Origin: Escherichia phage 241
Sequence record: OR924452
Reading direction: 5' to 3' (one strand)
DNA: 64,000 bases
The translations under genes were made by a program, and so were the position numbers. Below, in pieces: positions 21,962 to 47,796 of the stretch. Position 1 is the stretch's first letter, and each line of letters begins with the position of its first letter. The notes beneath the pieces are model-generated. The model saw only the letters and a program-made list of their open reading frames with translations. It made no database searches and was not told the DNA's origin.

Positions 21962-21963
21962 AA

Positions 21964-40145: not shown

Positions 40146-40828
40146 TCATGAGCAATATGTCAGAAAGGTTACTTGCGACGCTAGACGCGGTGACTGCCAG
40201 AGATGAAGTTGGTAAGGAGGCGATGGAAGCCGTCTCTCCACGTCCAGGTATTGACTTCGATGAAAAAACGGGCGAGTGGTTTGGTGAACGCCCAGAAGGT
40301 TATCAGCCGATTCCAGAACCTCCATCATTGGAAGATATCGCGTCCAAAGAATCCAAGGTTCCGGAGTTTGCGGATACTGATGCCACAACAGATTACAAGC
40401 GAATACGCGATACGACATACGCCATGCAGGAAGCCACGATGTTCATGATGGGGCAAGCTGCTAAATTAGCTGCATCTACCGAAGCCCCAAGAGCGTTTTC
40501 TGTGTTTCGTGAATTGGGCGAACTCATGCGCGGCCTGAACAAAGACCTGATGGAAAACCAAAAAACCATCAAAGCTGTGACAGGGGATAAAGAACCGCCG
40601 ACTGATGACACAACCGTGGATGTTACCACTTCACCCGACGGGACCACAACAGTATCTGTTGGGAAGAAAGCGAGATCTTCGCGCGATTTATTGAAAACGA
40701 TCGAAGATGCACGCCGCCGCGCTGAAGAACGCGCTCAGGCAAAAGCCACCCAACAAACCGAAGATGAAATTATCGACGGTGAAACGGTTGACGTGAAGGA
40801 AAAAGACGATGGCGTATCAGAAGCGTGA
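40142..40828 (+). CDS. gp16: Terminase small subunit (T4 gp16-like)
   Basis: Position directly before the large terminase; central segment similar to T4 gp16. Confidence 0.65.
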   Translation: MIMSNMSERLLATLDAVTARDEVGKEAMEAVSPRPGIDFDEKTGEWFGERPEGYQPIPEPPSLEDIASKESKVPEFADTDATTDYKRIRDTTYAMQEATMFMMGQAAKLAASTEAPRAFSVFRELGELMRGLNKDLMENQKTIKAVTGDKEPPTDDTTVDVTTSPDGTTTVSVGKKARSSRDLLKTIEDARRRAEERAQAKATQQTEDEIIDGETVDVKEKDDGVSEA

Positions 40829-43019
40829 TATAGAATATGCTCCGATAAAAACGGGGTTTAAAATCGACGACGTGAAATTGCGTATGGACCAGACGTTCAT
40901 GCGCAAGCCTTCTGTGCGCGCTCCACGAGTCGAGTTGATGCTAACAGATGAACAAGAAGACGAATTTGTTGAATGTTCAATGGACGCACATTACTTCGCT
41001 GCCAATTACTACAAGATAACGACAATCGATAAAGGCTTTATCCTTTTCGATATGCATGATTATCAGAAACAATTATTTCACGATTTTCAAGATTATCGTT
41101 TCAATGCCGTTGTCCAGGCGCGTCAGTCCGGTAAATGCGTCCGTGGTGATACTCTTGTTTATGTCTATGATACAGTCAGTCAACAAGAGTTGCATCTCAC
41201 CATAGAAGAGCTTCACAAGCGCTTCGAAGGACCGAACCATGCTGTGCCACTGAATACCATTGGCAACCACAATAAGTTTGTAGACAGCCGTTTCGGGAAA
41301 CGATATTTTGTTGAGTCCGACACTGGCTGGGTTCCGGTTATTGCCGCTCATAAAACGAAAGAATACGCTGAATACGTGGTCAGGACTGAAACCGGACGCA
41401 CAATTCATGTCGCAGATGAGCACATGTTCTTCAATGAATATGGGCGCGAAGTATTTGCTAAAGACATGGAGGCCGGAGATGCCATAATGACCCAGGAGGG
41501 AATAGAATTCATCTCTGAGATCTGGGAGACTGGTGAGTACCACCACATGTATGACTTGCAAGTCAAGTCCAGCGATCAACGTTATTACACGAATGGGTTC
41601 CTCAGCCATAATACCACGGTCGTGGCTGCGTTTCTTCTTTGGTATGCGATGTTCCACTCAGACAAAGAAATCGCGGTACTGGCAAACAAAGAGAAACAAG
41701 CGATTGAAATTCTTGACCGTATCAGGAAGGCGTATCAGGACCTCCCATTCTTCCTTCAGCAGGGTTGTGAGAAGTTTGGTTCTACACTGATAGAGTTTGA
41801 GAACGGCTCTAAGATATATGCTTATGCAACGTCTTCGGACTCTATTCGTGGTCGTTCTGTATCTCTCTTGTACGTGGACGAAGTCGCGTTCATCGAAAAT
41901 GACTTTGAATTTTGGGAATCAACATTCCCAGCGATCGCATCTGCTGATACTTCACGTTGTATTCTTACCAGTACTCCGAAAGGCCAGCGAGGGTTGTTCT
42001 ATGATATCGTCACCAAAGCAGACCCGCGCCATCCACAATACAACGATTTCCATCTTACCGAAGTCCCTTGGTACAAGGTTCCGGCGTACACCAAAGACCC
42101 TGATTGGGAAACCAAACAACGCGCTCGTCTGGGGGATGCCCGTTTTGACCAGGAATTTGGAATCAAGTTCCGTGGTTCTGTAGGTTCATTGATACCAGCC
42201 AAATGCTTGGATAAAATGACATCCAAGTTATATCGAGAGCCTAATGAGTTCACCAAAATTTACAAGGAATATGACCCGCAACGCATCTACTTCGGGATTG
42301 CAGATACGGGGAAAGGTGTTGAAGGAGATTATTCGGTTCTGACAATTCTGGATATAACGGAATACCCGCATGTCATAGCGGCCAAGTACAGGAACAATAC
42401 AATACCTCCGATGATGTATGCATACACGATAGCTGATATGTGTACTGAATACGGGGAGTGTCCAGTCCTTGTAGAAACCAACAACGACGTTGGTGGACAG
42501 GTTATTACAATCTTGTATCAAGAAATTGAGTATCCAGAGATTATATTCACGTCGACGGATAACAAAGGGACAGGGAAACGGATTGGTGGTCGTAAACCAG
42601 AGCCAGGCATTAACACCAACAGGAAAGTGCGATCTATTGGTTGTGCTAACCTGAAAGCGCTTATTGAGAAAGAAATGTTGGTGATCGAAGACCAAGACAC
42701 GATAGATGAACTCAGCACATTCGTGTTCCGTGGTGCGCGTTATGAAGCAGATGATGGATGTCACGACGACTGCGTTATGCCGTTGGTATTATATTCTTGG
42801 GCAGTTAAACAAGAATGGTTCAGTGATCTGACTTCTACCAGTATTTCTCAAGACATGAGAAATAGAATGTCTTCGACTGAGTCACAACAAGTATTCCCAT
42901 TTGGTGGTTTAGTCGTGGGAGACACTCCATCTGGAACTGAGCATCTCCCTGGGTTCGGTGGTGTTCAAGTCTTCGACGAACGTTCAGGGATGACAATGGA
43001 CGAGTGGTTTAAGAATTGA
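40809..43019 (+). CDS. gp17: Terminase large subunit (T4 gp17-like), interrupted by a mini-intein in the Walker A P-loop
   Basis: Extein sequence ARQSGK then TTVVAAFLLWYA matches T4 gp17 SRQLGKTTVVAIFLAHF; 736 aa including a 159-aa insertion. Confidence 0.9.
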   Translation: MAYQKRDIEYAPIKTGFKIDDVKLRMDQTFMRKPSVRAPRVELMLTDEQEDEFVECSMDAHYFAANYYKITTIDKGFILFDMHDYQKQLFHDFQDYRFNAVVQARQSGKCVRGDTLVYVYDTVSQQELHLTIEELHKRFEGPNHAVPLNTIGNHNKFVDSRFGKRYFVESDTGWVPVIAAHKTKEYAEYVVRTETGRTIHVADEHMFFNEYGREVFAKDMEAGDAIMTQEGIEFISEIWETGEYHHMYDLQVKSSDQRYYTNGFLSHNTTVVAAFLLWYAMFHSDKEIAVLANKEKQAIEILDRIRKAYQDLPFFLQQGCEKFGSTLIEFENGSKIYAYATSSDSIRGRSVSLLYVDEVAFIENDFEFWESTFPAIASADTSRCILTSTPKGQRGLFYDIVTKADPRHPQYNDFHLTEVPWYKVPAYTKDPDWETKQRARLGDARFDQEFGIKFRGSVGSLIPAKCLDKMTSKLYREPNEFTKIYKEYDPQRIYFGIADTGKGVEGDYSVLTILDITEYPHVIAAKYRNNTIPPMMYAYTIADMCTEYGECPVLVETNNDVGGQVITILYQEIEYPEIIFTSTDNKGTGKRIGGRKPEPGINTNRKVRSIGCANLKALIEKEMLVIEDQDTIDELSTFVFRGARYEADDGCHDDCVMPLVLYSWAVKQEWFSDLTSTSISQDMRNRMSSTESQQVFPFGGLVVGDTPSGTEHLPGFGGVQVFDERSGMTMDEWFKN
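41136..41612 (+). mobile_element. Mini-intein (159 aa, Hint domain only) in the terminase ATPase P-loop
   Basis: Begins with Cys (CVRGDTLVYV), ends with His-Asn, next extein residue Thr; inserted between the Lys and Thr of the GK[T] Walker A motif; too short for a homing endonuclease domain. Confidence 0.8.
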
Positions 43020-43022
43020 TCA

Positions 43023-43030
43023 CTAAATAT
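43023..43030 (+). promoter_or_regulatory. Late-promoter-like CTAAATAT motif upstream of gp18
   Basis: CTAAATATCTTTCAAATTGAG, paralleling the gp14 upstream element. Confidence 0.45.
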
Positions 43031-43071
43031 CTTTCAAATTGAGCGAAACTCTACCGAGAAGGAATAACATT

Positions 43072-44967
43072 ATGGCAACTCAAAGCTTCAGCGTTGCGCC
43101 GTCCGTACAGTGGACTGAGCGTGATGCCACGCTTCAGACTTCTCCGTCCGTGGTTGTTCAGGGCGCGACAGTCGGCAAATTTCAATGGGGTGAAGTCGAA
43201 CTCCCAGTGCTGGTGACTGGTGGTGAGACGGGTTTGGTGAAGAAATTCTTCAAACCTAATGACAGCACTGCGACAGATTTCCTTGTGATTGCAGACTTTT
43301 TGTCTTACAGCTCTATGGCATGGGTGACTCGTGTTGTTGGTCCTCTGGCCAAGAACTCTGTCACCAAAGGCCAGACAGCCATCACGATCAAAAACAAGCT
43401 GGATTTTGAAACAGCAAGTCCGTCAGCGTCTATCACTTGGGCTGGTCGTTATCCAGGATCTCTGGGAAATGACATCGCCATCAATGTTTGTGACTCCGCT
43501 GGATTTCCGACCTGGGAATTCCGTAACAACTTTGCGTACGCACCTCAATCTGGTGAATTCCATGTTGTGGTTGTAGACAAAGTTGGGCGCATTACTGACT
43601 CTGCAGGCGCAGTCGGTCAGGTTGATCGTATATCTGTTTCTGGCACGGCAACTGCAGCTGGCACCATCAGTGTGGCAGGTGAAGATATTGCATATCTGGA
43701 TACTGATACTCCGGCCACTTTGGCGACCAAAATCGGCGCGGCGCTGACGGCGCTGACAGATGTTTATTCTTCTGTCGTTGTTAAGTCTAACACTGTCATC
43801 GTGACCCATAAAGCTATTGGTCCCCAGACAGTTACTGCTATTGTTCCAGATGATAAGGGGCTGACTGCAACCGCCGTGATTACCACTGTTGGCGCATCTG
43901 GTTCTATTATCGAAAAATACGAACTCATGCAGAACACACAGGGTTCCAAAAAGTCCGATGGCGCGAATGCGTACTTCAAAGATGTCATCAATGATACATC
44001 AAATTGGGTGTACACCTTCGCTACCGCTCTGGCCGCAGGTGTTGTTGAATTAGAAGGCGGCGTAGACGACTACAATATCAACCGTGTCGCGGCTATCCAA
44101 GTTCTGAACAACGCCGAAGCATATGATGCGAAGCCAGTATTTGCATACTGTGAAGAGTTGATTGAACAACAGGCATTAATCGACTTGTCTACCGAGCGAA
44201 AAGACACCGTTTCCTTCGTGTCGCCTTTGCGTGATACTGTGGTCGGCAACCGTGGCCGTGAGATGGACGATGTGGTCGCTTGGCGTGAAAGTCTGGTGCG
44301 CGACTCCTCCTATTTCTTCATGGACGACAACTGGGCATACGTGTACGATAAATACAACGATAAGATGCGCTGGATCCCTGCTTGCGGCGGTACAGCGGGT
44401 GTTTGGGCACGTAGTATTGAAATCGCGGGTATCTACAAATCTCCTGCGTTCCACAACCGTGGCAAATACAACAACTACAATCGAATGGCGTGGTCTGCGT
44501 CTTCCGATGAACGTGCCGTGTTGTACCGCAACCAGATTAACAGCATCGTGACCTTCTCCAATGAAGGTATCGTGTTGTATGGTGACAAAACTGGTCTGAC
44601 TCGTCCGTCTGCTTTCGATCGTATCAATGTTCGCGGTCTGTTTATTATGGCAGAACAGAACATCGCTGCAATCGCCAAATATTACCTTGGTGAGAACAAT
44701 GATGCGTTCACTCGCAGTCTGTTCAGCAACGCTGTTCGTCCTTATATTCGCCAGCTGGCAAATATGGGTGCGATCTACGATGGTAAAGTCAAGTGTGACG
44801 AAGATAACAACACTGCTGACGTCATCGCGGCAAATCAGATGGTCGCTGGTATCTGGCTGAAACCGGAATACAGCATCAATTGGGTGTATCTTGACTTTGC
44901 TGCAGTTCGTCCGGATATGGAGTTCTCTGAAATTGAATCCGGCGGCGGCATCGTTGCTGCTTCTTAA
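43072..44967 (+). CDS. gp18: Tail sheath protein (T4 gp18-like)
   Basis: GKFQWGEVELPV matches the T4 gp18 N-terminus; AAGGAA RBS; start at the ATG at 43072. Confidence 0.85.
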   Translation: MATQSFSVAPSVQWTERDATLQTSPSVVVQGATVGKFQWGEVELPVLVTGGETGLVKKFFKPNDSTATDFLVIADFLSYSSMAWVTRVVGPLAKNSVTKGQTAITIKNKLDFETASPSASITWAGRYPGSLGNDIAINVCDSAGFPTWEFRNNFAYAPQSGEFHVVVVDKVGRITDSAGAVGQVDRISVSGTATAAGTISVAGEDIAYLDTDTPATLATKIGAALTALTDVYSSVVVKSNTVIVTHKAIGPQTVTAIVPDDKGLTATAVITTVGASGSIIEKYELMQNTQGSKKSDGANAYFKDVINDTSNWVYTFATALAAGVVELEGGVDDYNINRVAAIQVLNNAEAYDAKPVFAYCEELIEQQALIDLSTERKDTVSFVSPLRDTVVGNRGREMDDVVAWRESLVRDSSYFFMDDNWAYVYDKYNDKMRWIPACGGTAGVWARSIEIAGIYKSPAFHNRGKYNNYNRMAWSASSDERAVLYRNQINSIVTFSNEGIVLYGDKTGLTRPSAFDRINVRGLFIMAEQNIAAIAKYYLGENNDAFTRSLFSNAVRPYIRQLANMGAIYDGKVKCDEDNNTADVIAANQMVAGIWLKPEYSINWVYLDFAAVRPDMEFSEIESGGGIVAAS

Positions 44968-44973
44968 AAGATC

Positions 44974-45000
44974 AACCCCGCTTCGGCGGGGTTTTCCTTT
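44974..45000 (+). terminator. Rho-independent terminator
   Basis: AACCCCGCTTCGGCGGGGTT hairpin plus TTTCCTTT. Confidence 0.8.
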
Positions 45001-45023
45001 ATCCCACATATTTGAGTTATTGA

Positions 45024-45482
45024 ATGATATACGCATACAAAATTGAAATGGTTTGTAATGGAAAGGTCTACATCGGTGTGACCAATGACCCACAACGAAG
45101 ATATGATCAGCATTTTGCGAATGCCTTTCATCATGGAGTCCAAAGTGAATTGTATGACGCCATGCGTAAGTATGGAACATCTGGATTTACTTTCGTTGTA
45201 ATTGCTCAGACCGATGAAGTCCATAAATGGGAATTAGAGAAGCAACTCATCGCTCAATATAATTCTTATGAGATGGGTTACAACATGAATAAAGGCGGTA
45301 ATGATGGAAGTCATATGCTGGGTAAAACTGCAGCAAAATTGACATCCACAGGTGAACACATTGGTCTTGTTTCTCTCATAGATCCCCGTTGGGAATTGTG
45401 TGAAATCGAACCTGTTTCAAGTAATGTTCACCATGGTTTCGATCTTTCTTCTATGAAGATTAAAAGATTGACGACTAATTAG
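45024..45482 (+). CDS. GIY-YIG homing endonuclease (Seg-like), free-standing
   Basis: N-terminal MIYAYKIEMVCNGKVYIGVTNDPQRRYDQH carries the GIY...YIG...R signature; inserted between the tail sheath and tail tube genes. Confidence 0.8.
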   Translation: MIYAYKIEMVCNGKVYIGVTNDPQRRYDQHFANAFHHGVQSELYDAMRKYGTSGFTFVVIAQTDEVHKWELEKQLIAQYNSYEMGYNMNKGGNDGSHMLGKTAAKLTSTGEHIGLVSLIDPRWELCEIEPVSSNVHHGFDLSSMKIKRLTTN

Positions 45483-45512
45483 AATTGTGTACTCTTATTT
45501 GGAGATATAAAA

Positions 45513-46046
45513 ATGGCGACAGTCAATGAGTTTCGCGCAGCCATGTCACGAGGGGGCGGCGTACAACGCCAACACCGCTGGCGTGTGACTGTAAACTTTC
45601 CTTCTTTTGTTGCTGGTTCCGACACAATTCGCGACGTGTCCTTGCTGGCTGTAACTACCAACACCCCGACAGGTCAGCTGGGTGAAATTCTGGTGCCCTG
45701 GGGTGGTCGTGAACTTCCATTCCCAGGCGACCGTCGTTTCGAAGCACTGCCTGTAACATTCATTAACGTTGTGAACAACGCGCCGTACAACGCATTTGAA
45801 GTGTGGCAGCAATTCATCAATGGTAGTGAAAACAACCGCGCCAGCGCGAATCCAGATGATTATTTCCGTGATATCATCATGGAGCTTCTGGATGCGAATG
45901 ACAATGTCACCAAGACATGGACTTTGCAGGGTGGCTGGCCTCAAAACCTCGGCCAATTGGAACTCGATATGTCTGCGATGGACTCTTATACACAGTTCAC
46001 CGTCGATCTGCGTTATTTCCAAGCCGTGTCAGACAAATCTTTATAA
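45513..46046 (+). CDS. gp19: Tail tube protein (T4 gp19-like)
   Basis: C-terminus GGWPQNLGQLELDMSAMDSYTQFTVDLRYFQ matches T4 gp19 GLWPTNVGELQLDWDSNNEIQTFEVTLALDYWE. Confidence 0.85.
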   Translation: MATVNEFRAAMSRGGGVQRQHRWRVTVNFPSFVAGSDTIRDVSLLAVTTNTPTGQLGEILVPWGGRELPFPGDRRFEALPVTFINVVNNAPYNAFEVWQQFINGSENNRASANPDDYFRDIIMELLDANDNVTKTWTLQGGWPQNLGQLELDMSAMDSYTQFTVDLRYFQAVSDKSL

Positions 46047-46113: not shown

Positions 46114-47796
46114 ATGGCTGGATACGGCAGAGGGTTCTTCGGTTTGTTTGGCGGCGGCGGTTTGGTGAACGCTAAAGTCGACACCGATAAGTTAGCCCAA
46201 AAACAAGATGAACGGTTGCTAACCAAAGCGACAGTTGTTGCTCTGGACGACGCTCAAGACGGTTCTATAATCCTTCAGGGTGGTGCGAACACCTACAACT
46301 ATGTTGGCGTTGAAAGTGAACTTCTCAGCGTTAAAACAGTTGTGGAAGAATATCAGTCCATGGCTCAACAGCCTGAAATTCGCAAAGCGGTGGACATTAT
46401 TGTCAATGATGTTGTCACCTGTGAGGAAGATGAAACTCCAGTGACAGTAAACCTTGACAAAGTTGAAGGGATATCTGATACTGTTAAAGAATCTATCACT
46501 GAATGCTTCAAAGAAGTTATGCACTTGATGGACTTTGACAATACGGCATATCAGAAGATCCGGAAATGGTATGTTGACGGTCGACAAGCATATCATGTCA
46601 TCGTTGATCCCACGAATAAAAAAGGCGGGATCAAGAAATTGGTTATGCTTGATTCTCGTTGCATTCGTCCTGTCTATATCGTTGAGAAGGCGATGCGTGA
46701 AGGTGGTATCGAAGCAATAGAATCTGTAACGCTGAAATATTATTACAACCCGAATTACAACCGGAACCAATTCACTGGTCAGTCAGGGACTTCTCAAAAC
46801 TTCCAGCCTTCACAACAAGAACTCGTATTCGATGACGAAAGCATTGTTTACATCGATAGTGGTGAAGAGCCATTGGCCAATGGTATTGTCCCAGGCCTTT
46901 TAAATCCTGCTATCCGTCCGTTGAACAACCTGGTTACGACTGAAGATGCGACTGTAATTTATGCCATCACTCGCGCCCCTGAGAAACGCGCATTCTATCT
47001 TGACGTCGGTACTCTCGGTAAGAAATCTGCTGAAGAATACATGACCATGATGATGGGTAAATTCAAAAACCGCAACGCATATGACCGCACCACTGGTAAG
47101 ATAACAGGTAATGCCCATCTTATGGGTATTGCAGAGGATTATTGGTTGCCGCGCCGCGAAGGTCAGAATGCTACAGAGATCGCGACTGTTGGTGGTGGGA
47201 ATCAATTGGGCGAAATGGATCACGTGAACTATTTCCGTGAAAAACTCTATGATGCTCTAATGATCCCTAAGAGCCGCCTCCAAGAGGAAGGATCTATTAA
47301 CATTGGGGGTTCTAACCTTGCGGAGATTACACAGGAAGAGCTGCGTTTCAGCAAGTTCTGTGCTGGGTTACGTCGTCGTTACTCCCATTTCTTTATGGAG
47401 TTTTTACGTCGCCAATTAATTTTGAAAGGCGTGACTGACGAAAAAGATTGGAATGAAAAAATCAAGCCGTTTATTAAGTTTGAATTCACTTCTGATAGCT
47501 ATATTCGTGAGCAACAAGAAAACGCCATATTAAATGATCGCCTGGCTTCTCTGAACACTGTTGAGCCTTTTGTTGGTTCTATATTCTCCATCGATTATGT
47601 CATGCGGAATGTTCTGCGTATGTCAGACGAAGAAGTTAAAGAACAACAGGCTAAGATCGCGGAAGAGAAGAAGAAAGGTCTCTATCCGAAGGTTCAAGCA
47701 GATGAAACTGGCAATTATAGTGGTTCAGATGTTAGTCCGTTGAAGTTTAAACCTGAGACTATCCCATTCTCCGGTTCAACAGACGATAGTATTTAA
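46114..47796 (+). CDS. gp20: Portal protein (T4 gp20-like)
   Basis: Segments RKWYVDGRQAYHVIVDP, IYAITRAPEKRAFYLDVGTL and EDYWLPRREGQNATEIATV align with T4 gp20. Confidence 0.9.
   Translation: MAGYGRGFFGLFGGGGLVNAKVDTDKLAQKQDERLLTKATVVALDDAQDGSIILQGGANTYNYVGVESELLSVKTVVEEYQSMAQQPEIRKAVDIIVNDVVTCEEDETPVTVNLDKVEGISDTVKESITECFKEVMHLMDFDNTAYQKIRKWYVDGRQAYHVIVDPTNKKGGIKKLVMLDSRCIRPVYIVEKAMREGGIEAIESVTLKYYYNPNYNRNQFTGQSGTSQNFQPSQQELVFDDESIVYIDSGEEPLANGIVPGLLNPAIRPLNNLVTTEDATVIYAITRAPEKRAFYLDVGTLGKKSAEEYMTMMMGKFKNRNAYDRTTGKITGNAHLMGIAEDYWLPRREGQNATEIATVGGGNQLGEMDHVNYFREKLYDALMIPKSRLQEEGSINIGGSNLAEITQEELRFSKFCAGLRRRYSHFFMEFLRRQLILKGVTDEKDWNEKIKPFIKFEFTSDSYIREQQENAILNDRLASLNTVEPFVGSIFSIDYVMRNVLRMSDEEVKEQQAKIAEEKKKGLYPKVQADETGNYSGSDVSPLKFKPETIPFSGSTDDSI

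Follow-up and report, generated by a model that had tools for sequence, protein, structure and literature searches.

Escherichia phage 241 is represented here by a window of 64,000 nucleotides, the whole stretch of DNA that was analysed. Its local gene order is large terminase (40809–43019), tail sheath (43072–44967), an open reading frame (ORF) of 152 amino acids, tail tube (45513–46046) and portal (46114–47796). The ORF was read directly from the sequence at 45024–45482 on the plus strand, with an ATG start and a TAG stop. Over the 2.5 kb around it the DNA is 99.9% identical to the Salmonella phages Marshall, PS5 and Mooltan and 99.7% identical to Vi01, all four of which are members of Kuttervirus within the family Ackermannviridae. 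The gene itself is ordinary in kind. It was already annotated as 'GIY-YIG endonuclease' in Vi01 (Vi01_159c, in an accession of the 2010 era) and likewise in many later records, the CBA120 copy is annotated as 'putative homing endonuclease SegD', and in the PhiSH19 genome paper of 2011 it is listed as a GIY-YIG endonuclease of 152 aa, located between tube and sheath (PMC3220722). The following features were assigned:

43022–43029, plus strand: late-promoter-like motif ACTAAATA upstream of the sheath gene, a putative promoter (ACTAAWTA scan)
43072–44967, plus strand: tail sheath gene, gp18 homologue (Phage_sheath_1C, E=2.5e-13; PHROG 23, E=1e-113; Vi01 annotation)
44974–45003, plus strand: intrinsic-terminator-like hairpin with T-rich tail, left border of the insertion site (terminator scan)
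44994–45023, no strand: spacer between terminator and ORF (gap-state classification, junction sequences, direct reading)
45024–45482, plus strand: GIY-YIG endonuclease ORF, 'short152' form (Pfam, PHROG, Vi01 annotation, family alignment)
45024–45308, plus strand: GIY-YIG catalytic domain, aa 1–95 (PF01541, I-TevI alignment, Foldseek match to 1LN0, invariant residues)
45315–45416, plus strand: single 'DPRW' module, aa 98–131, GKTAAKLTSTGEHIGLVSLIDPRWELCEIEPV (invariant residues, repeats in other nucleases)
45417–45479, plus strand: family-specific tail of 21 aa, aa 132–152, standing in place of a NUMOD3/HTH-type region of about 100 aa (alignment)
45474–45481, plus strand: late-promoter-like motif ACTAATTA of the tube gene, right border of the insertion site (ACTAAWTA scan)
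45513–46046, plus strand: tail tube gene, gp19 homologue (PHROG 45, E=6e-57; Pfam Phage_T4_gp19)

For the sheath gene the ATG at 43072 was used as annotated in Vi01; the mechanically derived ORF starts from a TTG at 43039. Two long ORFs on the minus strand, 44176–45180 and 44964–45224, were dismissed as unsupported and antisense to the sheath and endonuclease genes. With 38.6% the GC content of the endonuclease ORF lies below that of the flanking genes (49.5% and 50.7%). The ORF is intergenic, neither within an intron nor within an intein, and both neighbouring genes are intact; the earlier note on this DNA, made from the sequence alone, had rightly called it free-standing.

The catalytic domain and the reduced C-terminal part

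A GIY-YIG N-terminus had been proposed for the 152-aa ORF, together with a search against the profile PF01541 as a check. This search gives a significant match over residues 2–87 (E=2e-10; 41.2 bits against a cut-off of 22.6), and the protein is covered from end to end by PHROG 5123, 'homing endonuclease with GIY-YIG motif' (E=4e-94). In the alignment with I-TevI, its residues Y6, Y17, R27, H31, E75 and N90 correspond to Y5, Y16, R26, H30, E72 and N87 of the ORF protein, where the pairing of the glutamates (E72/E75) was obtained by moving the register by eye by one residue relative to the HMMER alignment. All six residues are invariant in nine of nine family clusters, down to about 54–55% identity. 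An AF2 model, computed from the alignment of the nine family sequences, is weak as a whole (pLDDT 55), with values of 70–80 in the N-terminal domain and below 50 beyond aa 78. The N-terminal domain of this low-confidence model shows the GIY-YIG alpha/beta fold, and its sole significant Foldseek match in the PDB is the catalytic domain of I-TevI, 1LN0 (E=5e-4, probability 1.00, TM 0.69). The ORF protein is confirmed as a member of the GIY-YIG nuclease superfamily (PF01541). The NCBIfam profile for group I intron endonucleases, TIGR01453, reaches 47.2 bits with it and hence stays below the cut-off of 56.05 (profile positions 5–93 of 215); a Menlow-type homologue (P0010) passes with 57.6 bits over positions 5–181.

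The catalytic domain is followed by a single DPRW module, in which G100, T109-G110-E111, D120-P121-R122-W123 and E127-I128-E129 are invariant in the family alignment. The unit of about 35 aa has the consensus GxxAAxxxxTGExLGxVxxxDPRWxTGEI. It is present also in the full-length homologues of the ORF protein, and the proteins P0012, P0016, P0019 and P0106 carry four to six tandem copies; phage nucleases with such repeats have GIY-YIG, SegE-like or HNH-like heads. Possibly, the unit is a so far undescribed DNA-binding module that contacts DNA. Pfam and NCBIfam searches gave no match for it, nor for anything beyond aa 96 of the ORF protein, its fold is not resolved in the AF2 model (pLDDT <50), and a literature search for 'DPRW' returned nothing relevant. 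A profile made from 23 copies detected weak similarity to blade turns of the Kelch/PQQ type among PDB sequences (E=4e-4 to 0.3, in 15-residue stretches); homology to beta-propeller blades was rejected as a mere resemblance of beta-hairpin motifs.

Beyond the module the protein has only its tail, in which V135, F139 and R148 do not vary among the members of the short family. The full-length genes found in the same gap of relatives (Menlow, SKML-39, barely, fGh-Ecl02 and, on the opposite strand, GOT) share insertion site, catalytic domain and DPRW module with the short form, and their proteins can be aligned with it through aa ~131. Unlike the short form, they then run on for about 100 aa, with a NUMOD3-like stretch, 'SPxGxxYE', a weak HTH match and the ending NTTGWQLIRIV. 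This ending is encoded by the tube promoter block, through which the short form passes in another frame, where it stops. Over aa ~5–131 the identity to the ORF protein is 58% for Menlow, 41–42% for the K-type and 28–31% for the G-type proteins. The short family is narrow, consisting of nine 90% clusters, eight with 151–174 aa and one 105-aa fragment (P0005), and a search of 1.84 billion cluster representatives yielded no more than two clusters at E<1e-30, the short one and the Menlow-type one of 230 aa.

A neighbour-joining distance tree of the shared 131 residues places the short and the Menlow-type proteins together, the K-type as their sister and the G-type as outgroup. The short forms are nested among full-length forms in this tree, which suggests that the long architecture is ancestral, and the private tail common to the short forms of all three genera in which they occur points to one truncation event. 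To look for a trace of the lost C-terminus, the DNA encoding aa 132–152 and its translations in the three frames were set against the 3' portions of the genes from Menlow, SKML-39 and barely; the scores did not exceed those of shuffles. We infer the truncation from the architecture and the distance tree only.

The earlier note had seen in the ORF a textbook case, typical of Seg-like endonucleases. Its catalytic domain and intergenic location agree with that description; its C-terminus does not, since the NUMOD3/HTH region of the 230–262-aa homologues is missing. As in the T4 Seg enzymes (SegA–SegG), an N-terminal GIY-YIG domain is encoded between conserved genes, with a patchy distribution and signs of co-conversion of the flanks. 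Seg proteins have about 190–225 aa, including a C-terminal DNA-binding region. The ORF protein, in contrast, ends at 152 aa, one short module after the catalytic domain: in place of the modular DNA-binding domain of NUMOD/HTH type that characterizes Seg-like endonucleases, 21 aa follow the DPRW module. In I-TevI-type enzymes the DNA affinity comes mostly from the C-terminal domain. Because this domain is missing, autonomous site-specific cleavage by the 152-aa protein appears uncertain. I-TevI, the endonuclease of the T4 td intron (1LN0/1MK0), is the best match among solved structures by sequence as well as by fold. It is an intron-encoded protein of 245 aa with a 75-aa linker, a zinc finger, a minor-groove helix and an HTH (PMC2988022), whereas the ORF protein has none of these four elements and is not intron-encoded.

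Borders of the insertion site and signals for expression

On its left side the insertion site is bordered by the hairpin AACCCCGC-TTCG-GCGGGGTT, followed by TTTTCCTTT. Its stem, 44974–44993, consists of 8 bp with 6 GC pairs and is located 7 nt past the sheath stop, so the ORF indeed lies just downstream of a gp18 terminator, as had been claimed. The terminator scan returned three sites where 0.4 were expected. A hairpin is kept at this position in all relatives in two allelic forms, AACCCCGCTTCGGCGGGGTT and ATGCCCTCTTCGGAGGGCAT; these alleles cut across genus boundaries, as 3M, S118, SKML-39 and AG3 all have the second form. On the right side, the tube gene is preceded, whatever occupies the gap and also where the gap is empty, by a block ACTAATTAGAATTGTGTAA, which contains ACTAATTA. 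The TAG stop of the ORF (45480–45482) falls inside ACTAATTA. In the alignment of all states, every insert begins directly after the sheath terminator and ends about 10 nt before ACTAATTAGAATTGTGTAA. The inserted unit of the window thus reaches from just past the terminator to about 10 nt before ACTAATTAG, which is intact in the empty sites of AG3 and P46FS4. The position of the spacer 44994–45023 is the place at which relatives have extra full-length GIY-YIG genes, the K-type on the plus and the G-type on the minus strand.

The motif ACTAAWTA has nine matches in the window, at 21963, 27404, 32257, 38772, 43022, 45474, 46081, 47803 and 49021, where 3.4 would be expected on both strands. All of them are on the plus strand, none on the minus strand, and each precedes a late structural gene at a short distance. 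A late-promoter variant, CTAAATA, has been described from the T4-like phage Aeh1 (PMC1524935), and ACTAAWTA is probably the T4-type late promoter of the phage studied here, corresponding to the same variant. Based on this distribution and on the variant in Aeh1, we read ACTAATTAGAATTGTGTAA as the putative late promoter of the tube gene. Upstream of the ORF, in the region 44968–45023, no late-promoter motif was found; a sigma-70-type scan detected nothing upstream of the ORF and matches at chance level inside it. The ribosome-binding site, by direct reading, is a weak GAG. Without a promoter motif of its own and with such a ribosome-binding site, the ORF would need read-through of the sheath terminator for its expression, and the motif at 43022 is the probable source of any transcript reaching it. 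The T4 gene mobE is promoterless and expressed by read-through (PMC2790892).

Occupancy of the sheath-tube gap and distribution of the short gene

We classified the state of the gap over 40 loci. One empty and at least seven occupied states were found, that is, at least eight occupancy states:

Empty (77–78 bp): Shigella phage AG3, Salmonella phage P46FS4, Erwinia phage Bue1 (164,037 bp)
Short 152-aa gene alone: the window, Vi01, CBA120, SJ3, PLL1, KP6F1, IME250, 3M
262-aa GIY-YIG gene on the opposite strand plus short gene: GEC_vB_GOT, bering, EP75
'K-type' GIY-YIG gene of 231–236 aa in tandem with the short gene: S118, STML-13-1, KpS110, a Miltonvirus
K-type gene alone (232–237 aa): SKML-39, barely, fGh-Ecl02
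'Menlow-type' gene of 230 aa alone: Klebsiella phage Menlow
262-like gene alone, intact or frameshifted: L035 (Se-J), UTK0004
Hef-like gene of about 590 aa on the opposite strand: Limestone phages (F-LimVIII; PMC3296691), maane

The earlier note had described the gp18-gp19 junction as interrupted and had named a comparison across relatives as the way to check this. The junction is uninterrupted in AG3, P46FS4 and Bue1, and the comparison reveals a presence/absence polymorphism. By tblastn at ≥58% aa identity the short ORF was detected in about 199 phage records, and about 282 records have an enterobacterial-type tube gene, both counts being inflated by GenBank/RefSeq duplicates. Within Kuttervirus it is found in about 150 of 172 records (~87%). 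Roughly 30% of the related records lack it or have a replacement, among them some Kutterviruses and, in Agtrevirus and Limestonevirus, entire species; in barely, maane, UTK0004, SKML-39 and Limestone other endonuclease genes take its place. This patchy distribution, together with the relatives with empty sites, shows that the ORF was inserted and does not belong to the core genes.

Its position is conserved nonetheless over long distances. The short ORF has the same place and orientation in most Kuttervirus, in most Taipeivirus and in Miltonvirus, and also the most divergent members, with 55–60% identity (metagenomic contigs, P0009, P0007), are located between sheath and tube. Between Kuttervirus and Taipeivirus its dS is 1.3–1.4, compared to 1.2–1.9 for sheath and tube. 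Siblings that are 98–99% identical to the window differ solely by an additional endonuclease gene of 700–830 bp, inserted past the terminator and ahead of the short ORF. The events of recent date at this locus thus involve these neighbouring genes and not the short ORF. Tandem arrangements of K-type plus short and G-type plus short genes occur in many relatives; most carriers have the short gene alone. No paralogues of the K, G, M or Hef-like types, which might act in trans, were found elsewhere in the 64-kb window.

Two further observations on the occupants of the gap were made. Directly upstream of the tube gene of Dickeya phage JA15 (L007, 6892–6999), and likewise of LIMEstone1 (L032), there is a relic of 36 codons from a Menlow-type C-terminus. 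It adjoins the Hef-like F-LimVIII, so an earlier occupant was apparently overwritten. In L020 and L026 (2990–3015), the K-type gene ends with ...GWRLERI, and its TGA overlaps the ATG of the short gene (ATATGA); these last codons of the tandem K-type genes resemble the promoter-derived ...GWQLIRIV of the lone K-type genes.

Selection, probable gene conversion and possible histories of the short gene

For the ORF, dN/dS is 0.15–0.19 within Kuttervirus and 0.08–0.12 between genera, and the C-terminal third is constrained as well. Judged by these ratios, the ORF is under purifying selection and is not decaying. A different signal comes from its diversity. In ten Kuttervirus loci just two alleles of the ORF were found, about 4% apart, and their distribution is discordant with both flanks. 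The identity at third codon positions is 0.92–1.00 in the ORF, but goes down to 0.61 in the 3' end of the sheath gene and to 0.78 in the tube gene (p = 1e-8 to 6e-16 in Fisher tests that set the ORF against the two flanks together). Constraint does not explain this uniformity, because at the protein level the ORF evolves faster than the flanks. According to the sliding-window identity and the table of variable sites, the block of high identity extends from about 45050 to 45650, i.e. into the first ~120–140 nt of the tube gene. Spread by break-induced gene conversion is expected to leave such patterns (PMC2988022), and the two near-uniform alleles on diverged, discordant flanks indicate that the gene spread in this way within Kuttervirus. 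The double-strand break could have been made by its own nuclease or by a neighbour in trans, as the pattern is compatible with both. Allele A was seen with K-type and allele B with G-type neighbours. Moreover, an identical tube 5' end exists also in Kutterviruses without the short ORF (barely, UTK0004 and L035 (Se-J)), and recombination mosaics are common throughout the sheath-tube region; hence, the low diversity need not stem from the product of the ORF.

A related observation was made at loci with other occupants. In maane and its relatives (L017/L019/L024) the tube gene is Limestone-like up to about nt 200 and then returns to the Kuttervirus sequence, and fGh-Ecl02 (L014) and L029 have a Limestone-like tube 5' end with a mosaic beyond. 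This looks like a co-conversion tract that arrived with a Hef-like or K-type gene; for the seg genes, co-conversion and marker exclusion have been described (PMC2988022).

Taking these data together, we consider it rather probable that the ORF is a reduced but functional free-standing GIY-YIG endonuclease gene, an old resident of this landing pad that is expressed by read-through and still spreads by gene conversion. It would represent an endonuclease of the I-TevI/Seg class in reduced form, with an intact catalytic domain and one DPRW module. Its ancestor would have inserted between the sheath terminator and the late promoter of the tube gene, either before Kuttervirus, Taipeivirus and Miltonvirus split or with ancient transfer among them, and a single truncation would have been followed by retention under purifying selection. 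Transcripts starting from the late promoter at 43022 would read through the sheath terminator and give low expression. Together with the initial ~120 nt of the tube gene, the ORF would move between co-infecting Kuttervirus genomes via double-strand-break repair and gene conversion, following presumed cleavage by the ORF's own nuclease or, in trans, by adjoining full-length endonucleases.

That the insertion is a recent one, as the earlier note had thought likely, is not supported for this genome, in view of its conserved place across genera and a divergence equal to that of the flanks (dS of about 1.3). The empty sites in AG3, P46FS4 and Bue1 and a GC content 11 points below that of the flanks would fit the arrival of an ordinary Seg-like endonuclease gene in this particular genome; with the same gene at the same place in about 200 records from three genera, and with an architecture that is truncated and not that of an ordinary Seg-like gene, we regard this as very improbable. 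A defunct relic deserves more attention. In this case, targeting would have been lost with the truncation and homing with it, and the gene would be dragged along through co-conversion from its full-length neighbours (K-type, G-type, Hef-like). The missing HTH-type C-terminal region, the many tandems with K-type and G-type genes, each with its own allele of the ORF, and the clear co-conversion tracts of other endonucleases at this site, such as the first ~200 nt of the maane tube gene, are in line with this. There is also a precedent in T4, where mobE mobilises in trans the truncated, defunct I-TevIII (PMC2790892), likewise a shortened endonuclease gene that persists near active ones and can be spread by their gene conversion. 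However, I-TevIII is an HNH enzyme located in an intron and was inactivated by a large deletion, whereas the catalytic domain of the ORF is complete and under purifying selection. A relic should decay, yet all family members examined except the 105-aa P0005 have their full length of 151–174 aa, the six catalytic residues remain unchanged down to ~55% identity, dN/dS is 0.08–0.19 with the C-terminal third included, and most carriers have no adjoining helper. We therefore judge the relic to be unlikely.

The same purifying selection, combined with near-fixation in three genera across saturating synonymous divergence and a conserved family-specific tail, could also be understood if the gene was domesticated, i.e. 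kept, after the loss of its targeting domain, as a small nuclease for the benefit of the phage, which might cut unmodified DNA of host or competitor and spare the modified DNA of the phage itself, in the manner of T4 endonuclease II, or might exclude co-infecting relatives. Some small GIY-YIG enzymes, for instance T4 EndoII (136 aa) and Hpy188I, do without a separate DNA-binding domain, and Vi01-like phages have hypermodified thymidines; both facts would suit such a role. In size and catalytic superfamily the ORF protein resembles T4 endonuclease II (DenA) and other small GIY-YIG nucleases. Unlike DenA, with which it has no specific similarity in sequence or fold beyond the superfamily, it has homing-type genes in the same gap as its closest relatives and I-TevI as its best solved match. 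Furthermore, the gene is dispensable, being absent or replaced in ~30% of related records, and the low GC content, the site just past the sheath terminator and the lack of a promoter motif fit a selfish element. Domestication is thus quite unlikely in our opinion. Equally doubtful is its extended form, in which the 152-aa protein would be a minimal nuclease under selection in three Ackermannviridae genera for a job beneficial to the phage and its DPRW module a copy of an undescribed DNA-binding repeat. If this were true, cutting of unmodified host or rival-phage DNA or guarding of the sheath-tube junction during co-infection might be among its tasks.

What goes beyond the existing annotation is that a truncated form has stayed intact and constrained across genera, which is unusual for the cycle of invasion, decay and loss of homing endonuclease genes. 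The sheath-tube gap of the Ackermannviridae offers a compact natural test bed for endonuclease competition, trans-mobilisation and co-conversion. As such phages serve in biocontrol, recombination hot spots in their structural modules are also of practical interest.

A minor observation concerns the large terminase gene (40809–43019) upstream of the sheath gene. At 41136–41612 on the plus strand, a mini-intein-like insert of 159 aa splits the Walker A loop. Its junctions read ...QARQSGK / CVRGDTLVY...FLSHN / TTVVAAFLLW, with Cys as the first residue and His-Asn as the last ones, followed by Thr. The NCBIfam profile intein_Nterm matches aa 110–208 with E=2e-4, just below its cut-off, intein_Cterm reaches E=0.07, and Pfam Intein_splicing E=4e-6, again below its cut-off. 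The terminase coding sequence has 2211 bp here and likewise in Vi01, GEC_vB_GOT, CBA120, AG3, KP6F1 and IME250, where it is annotated simply as terminase.
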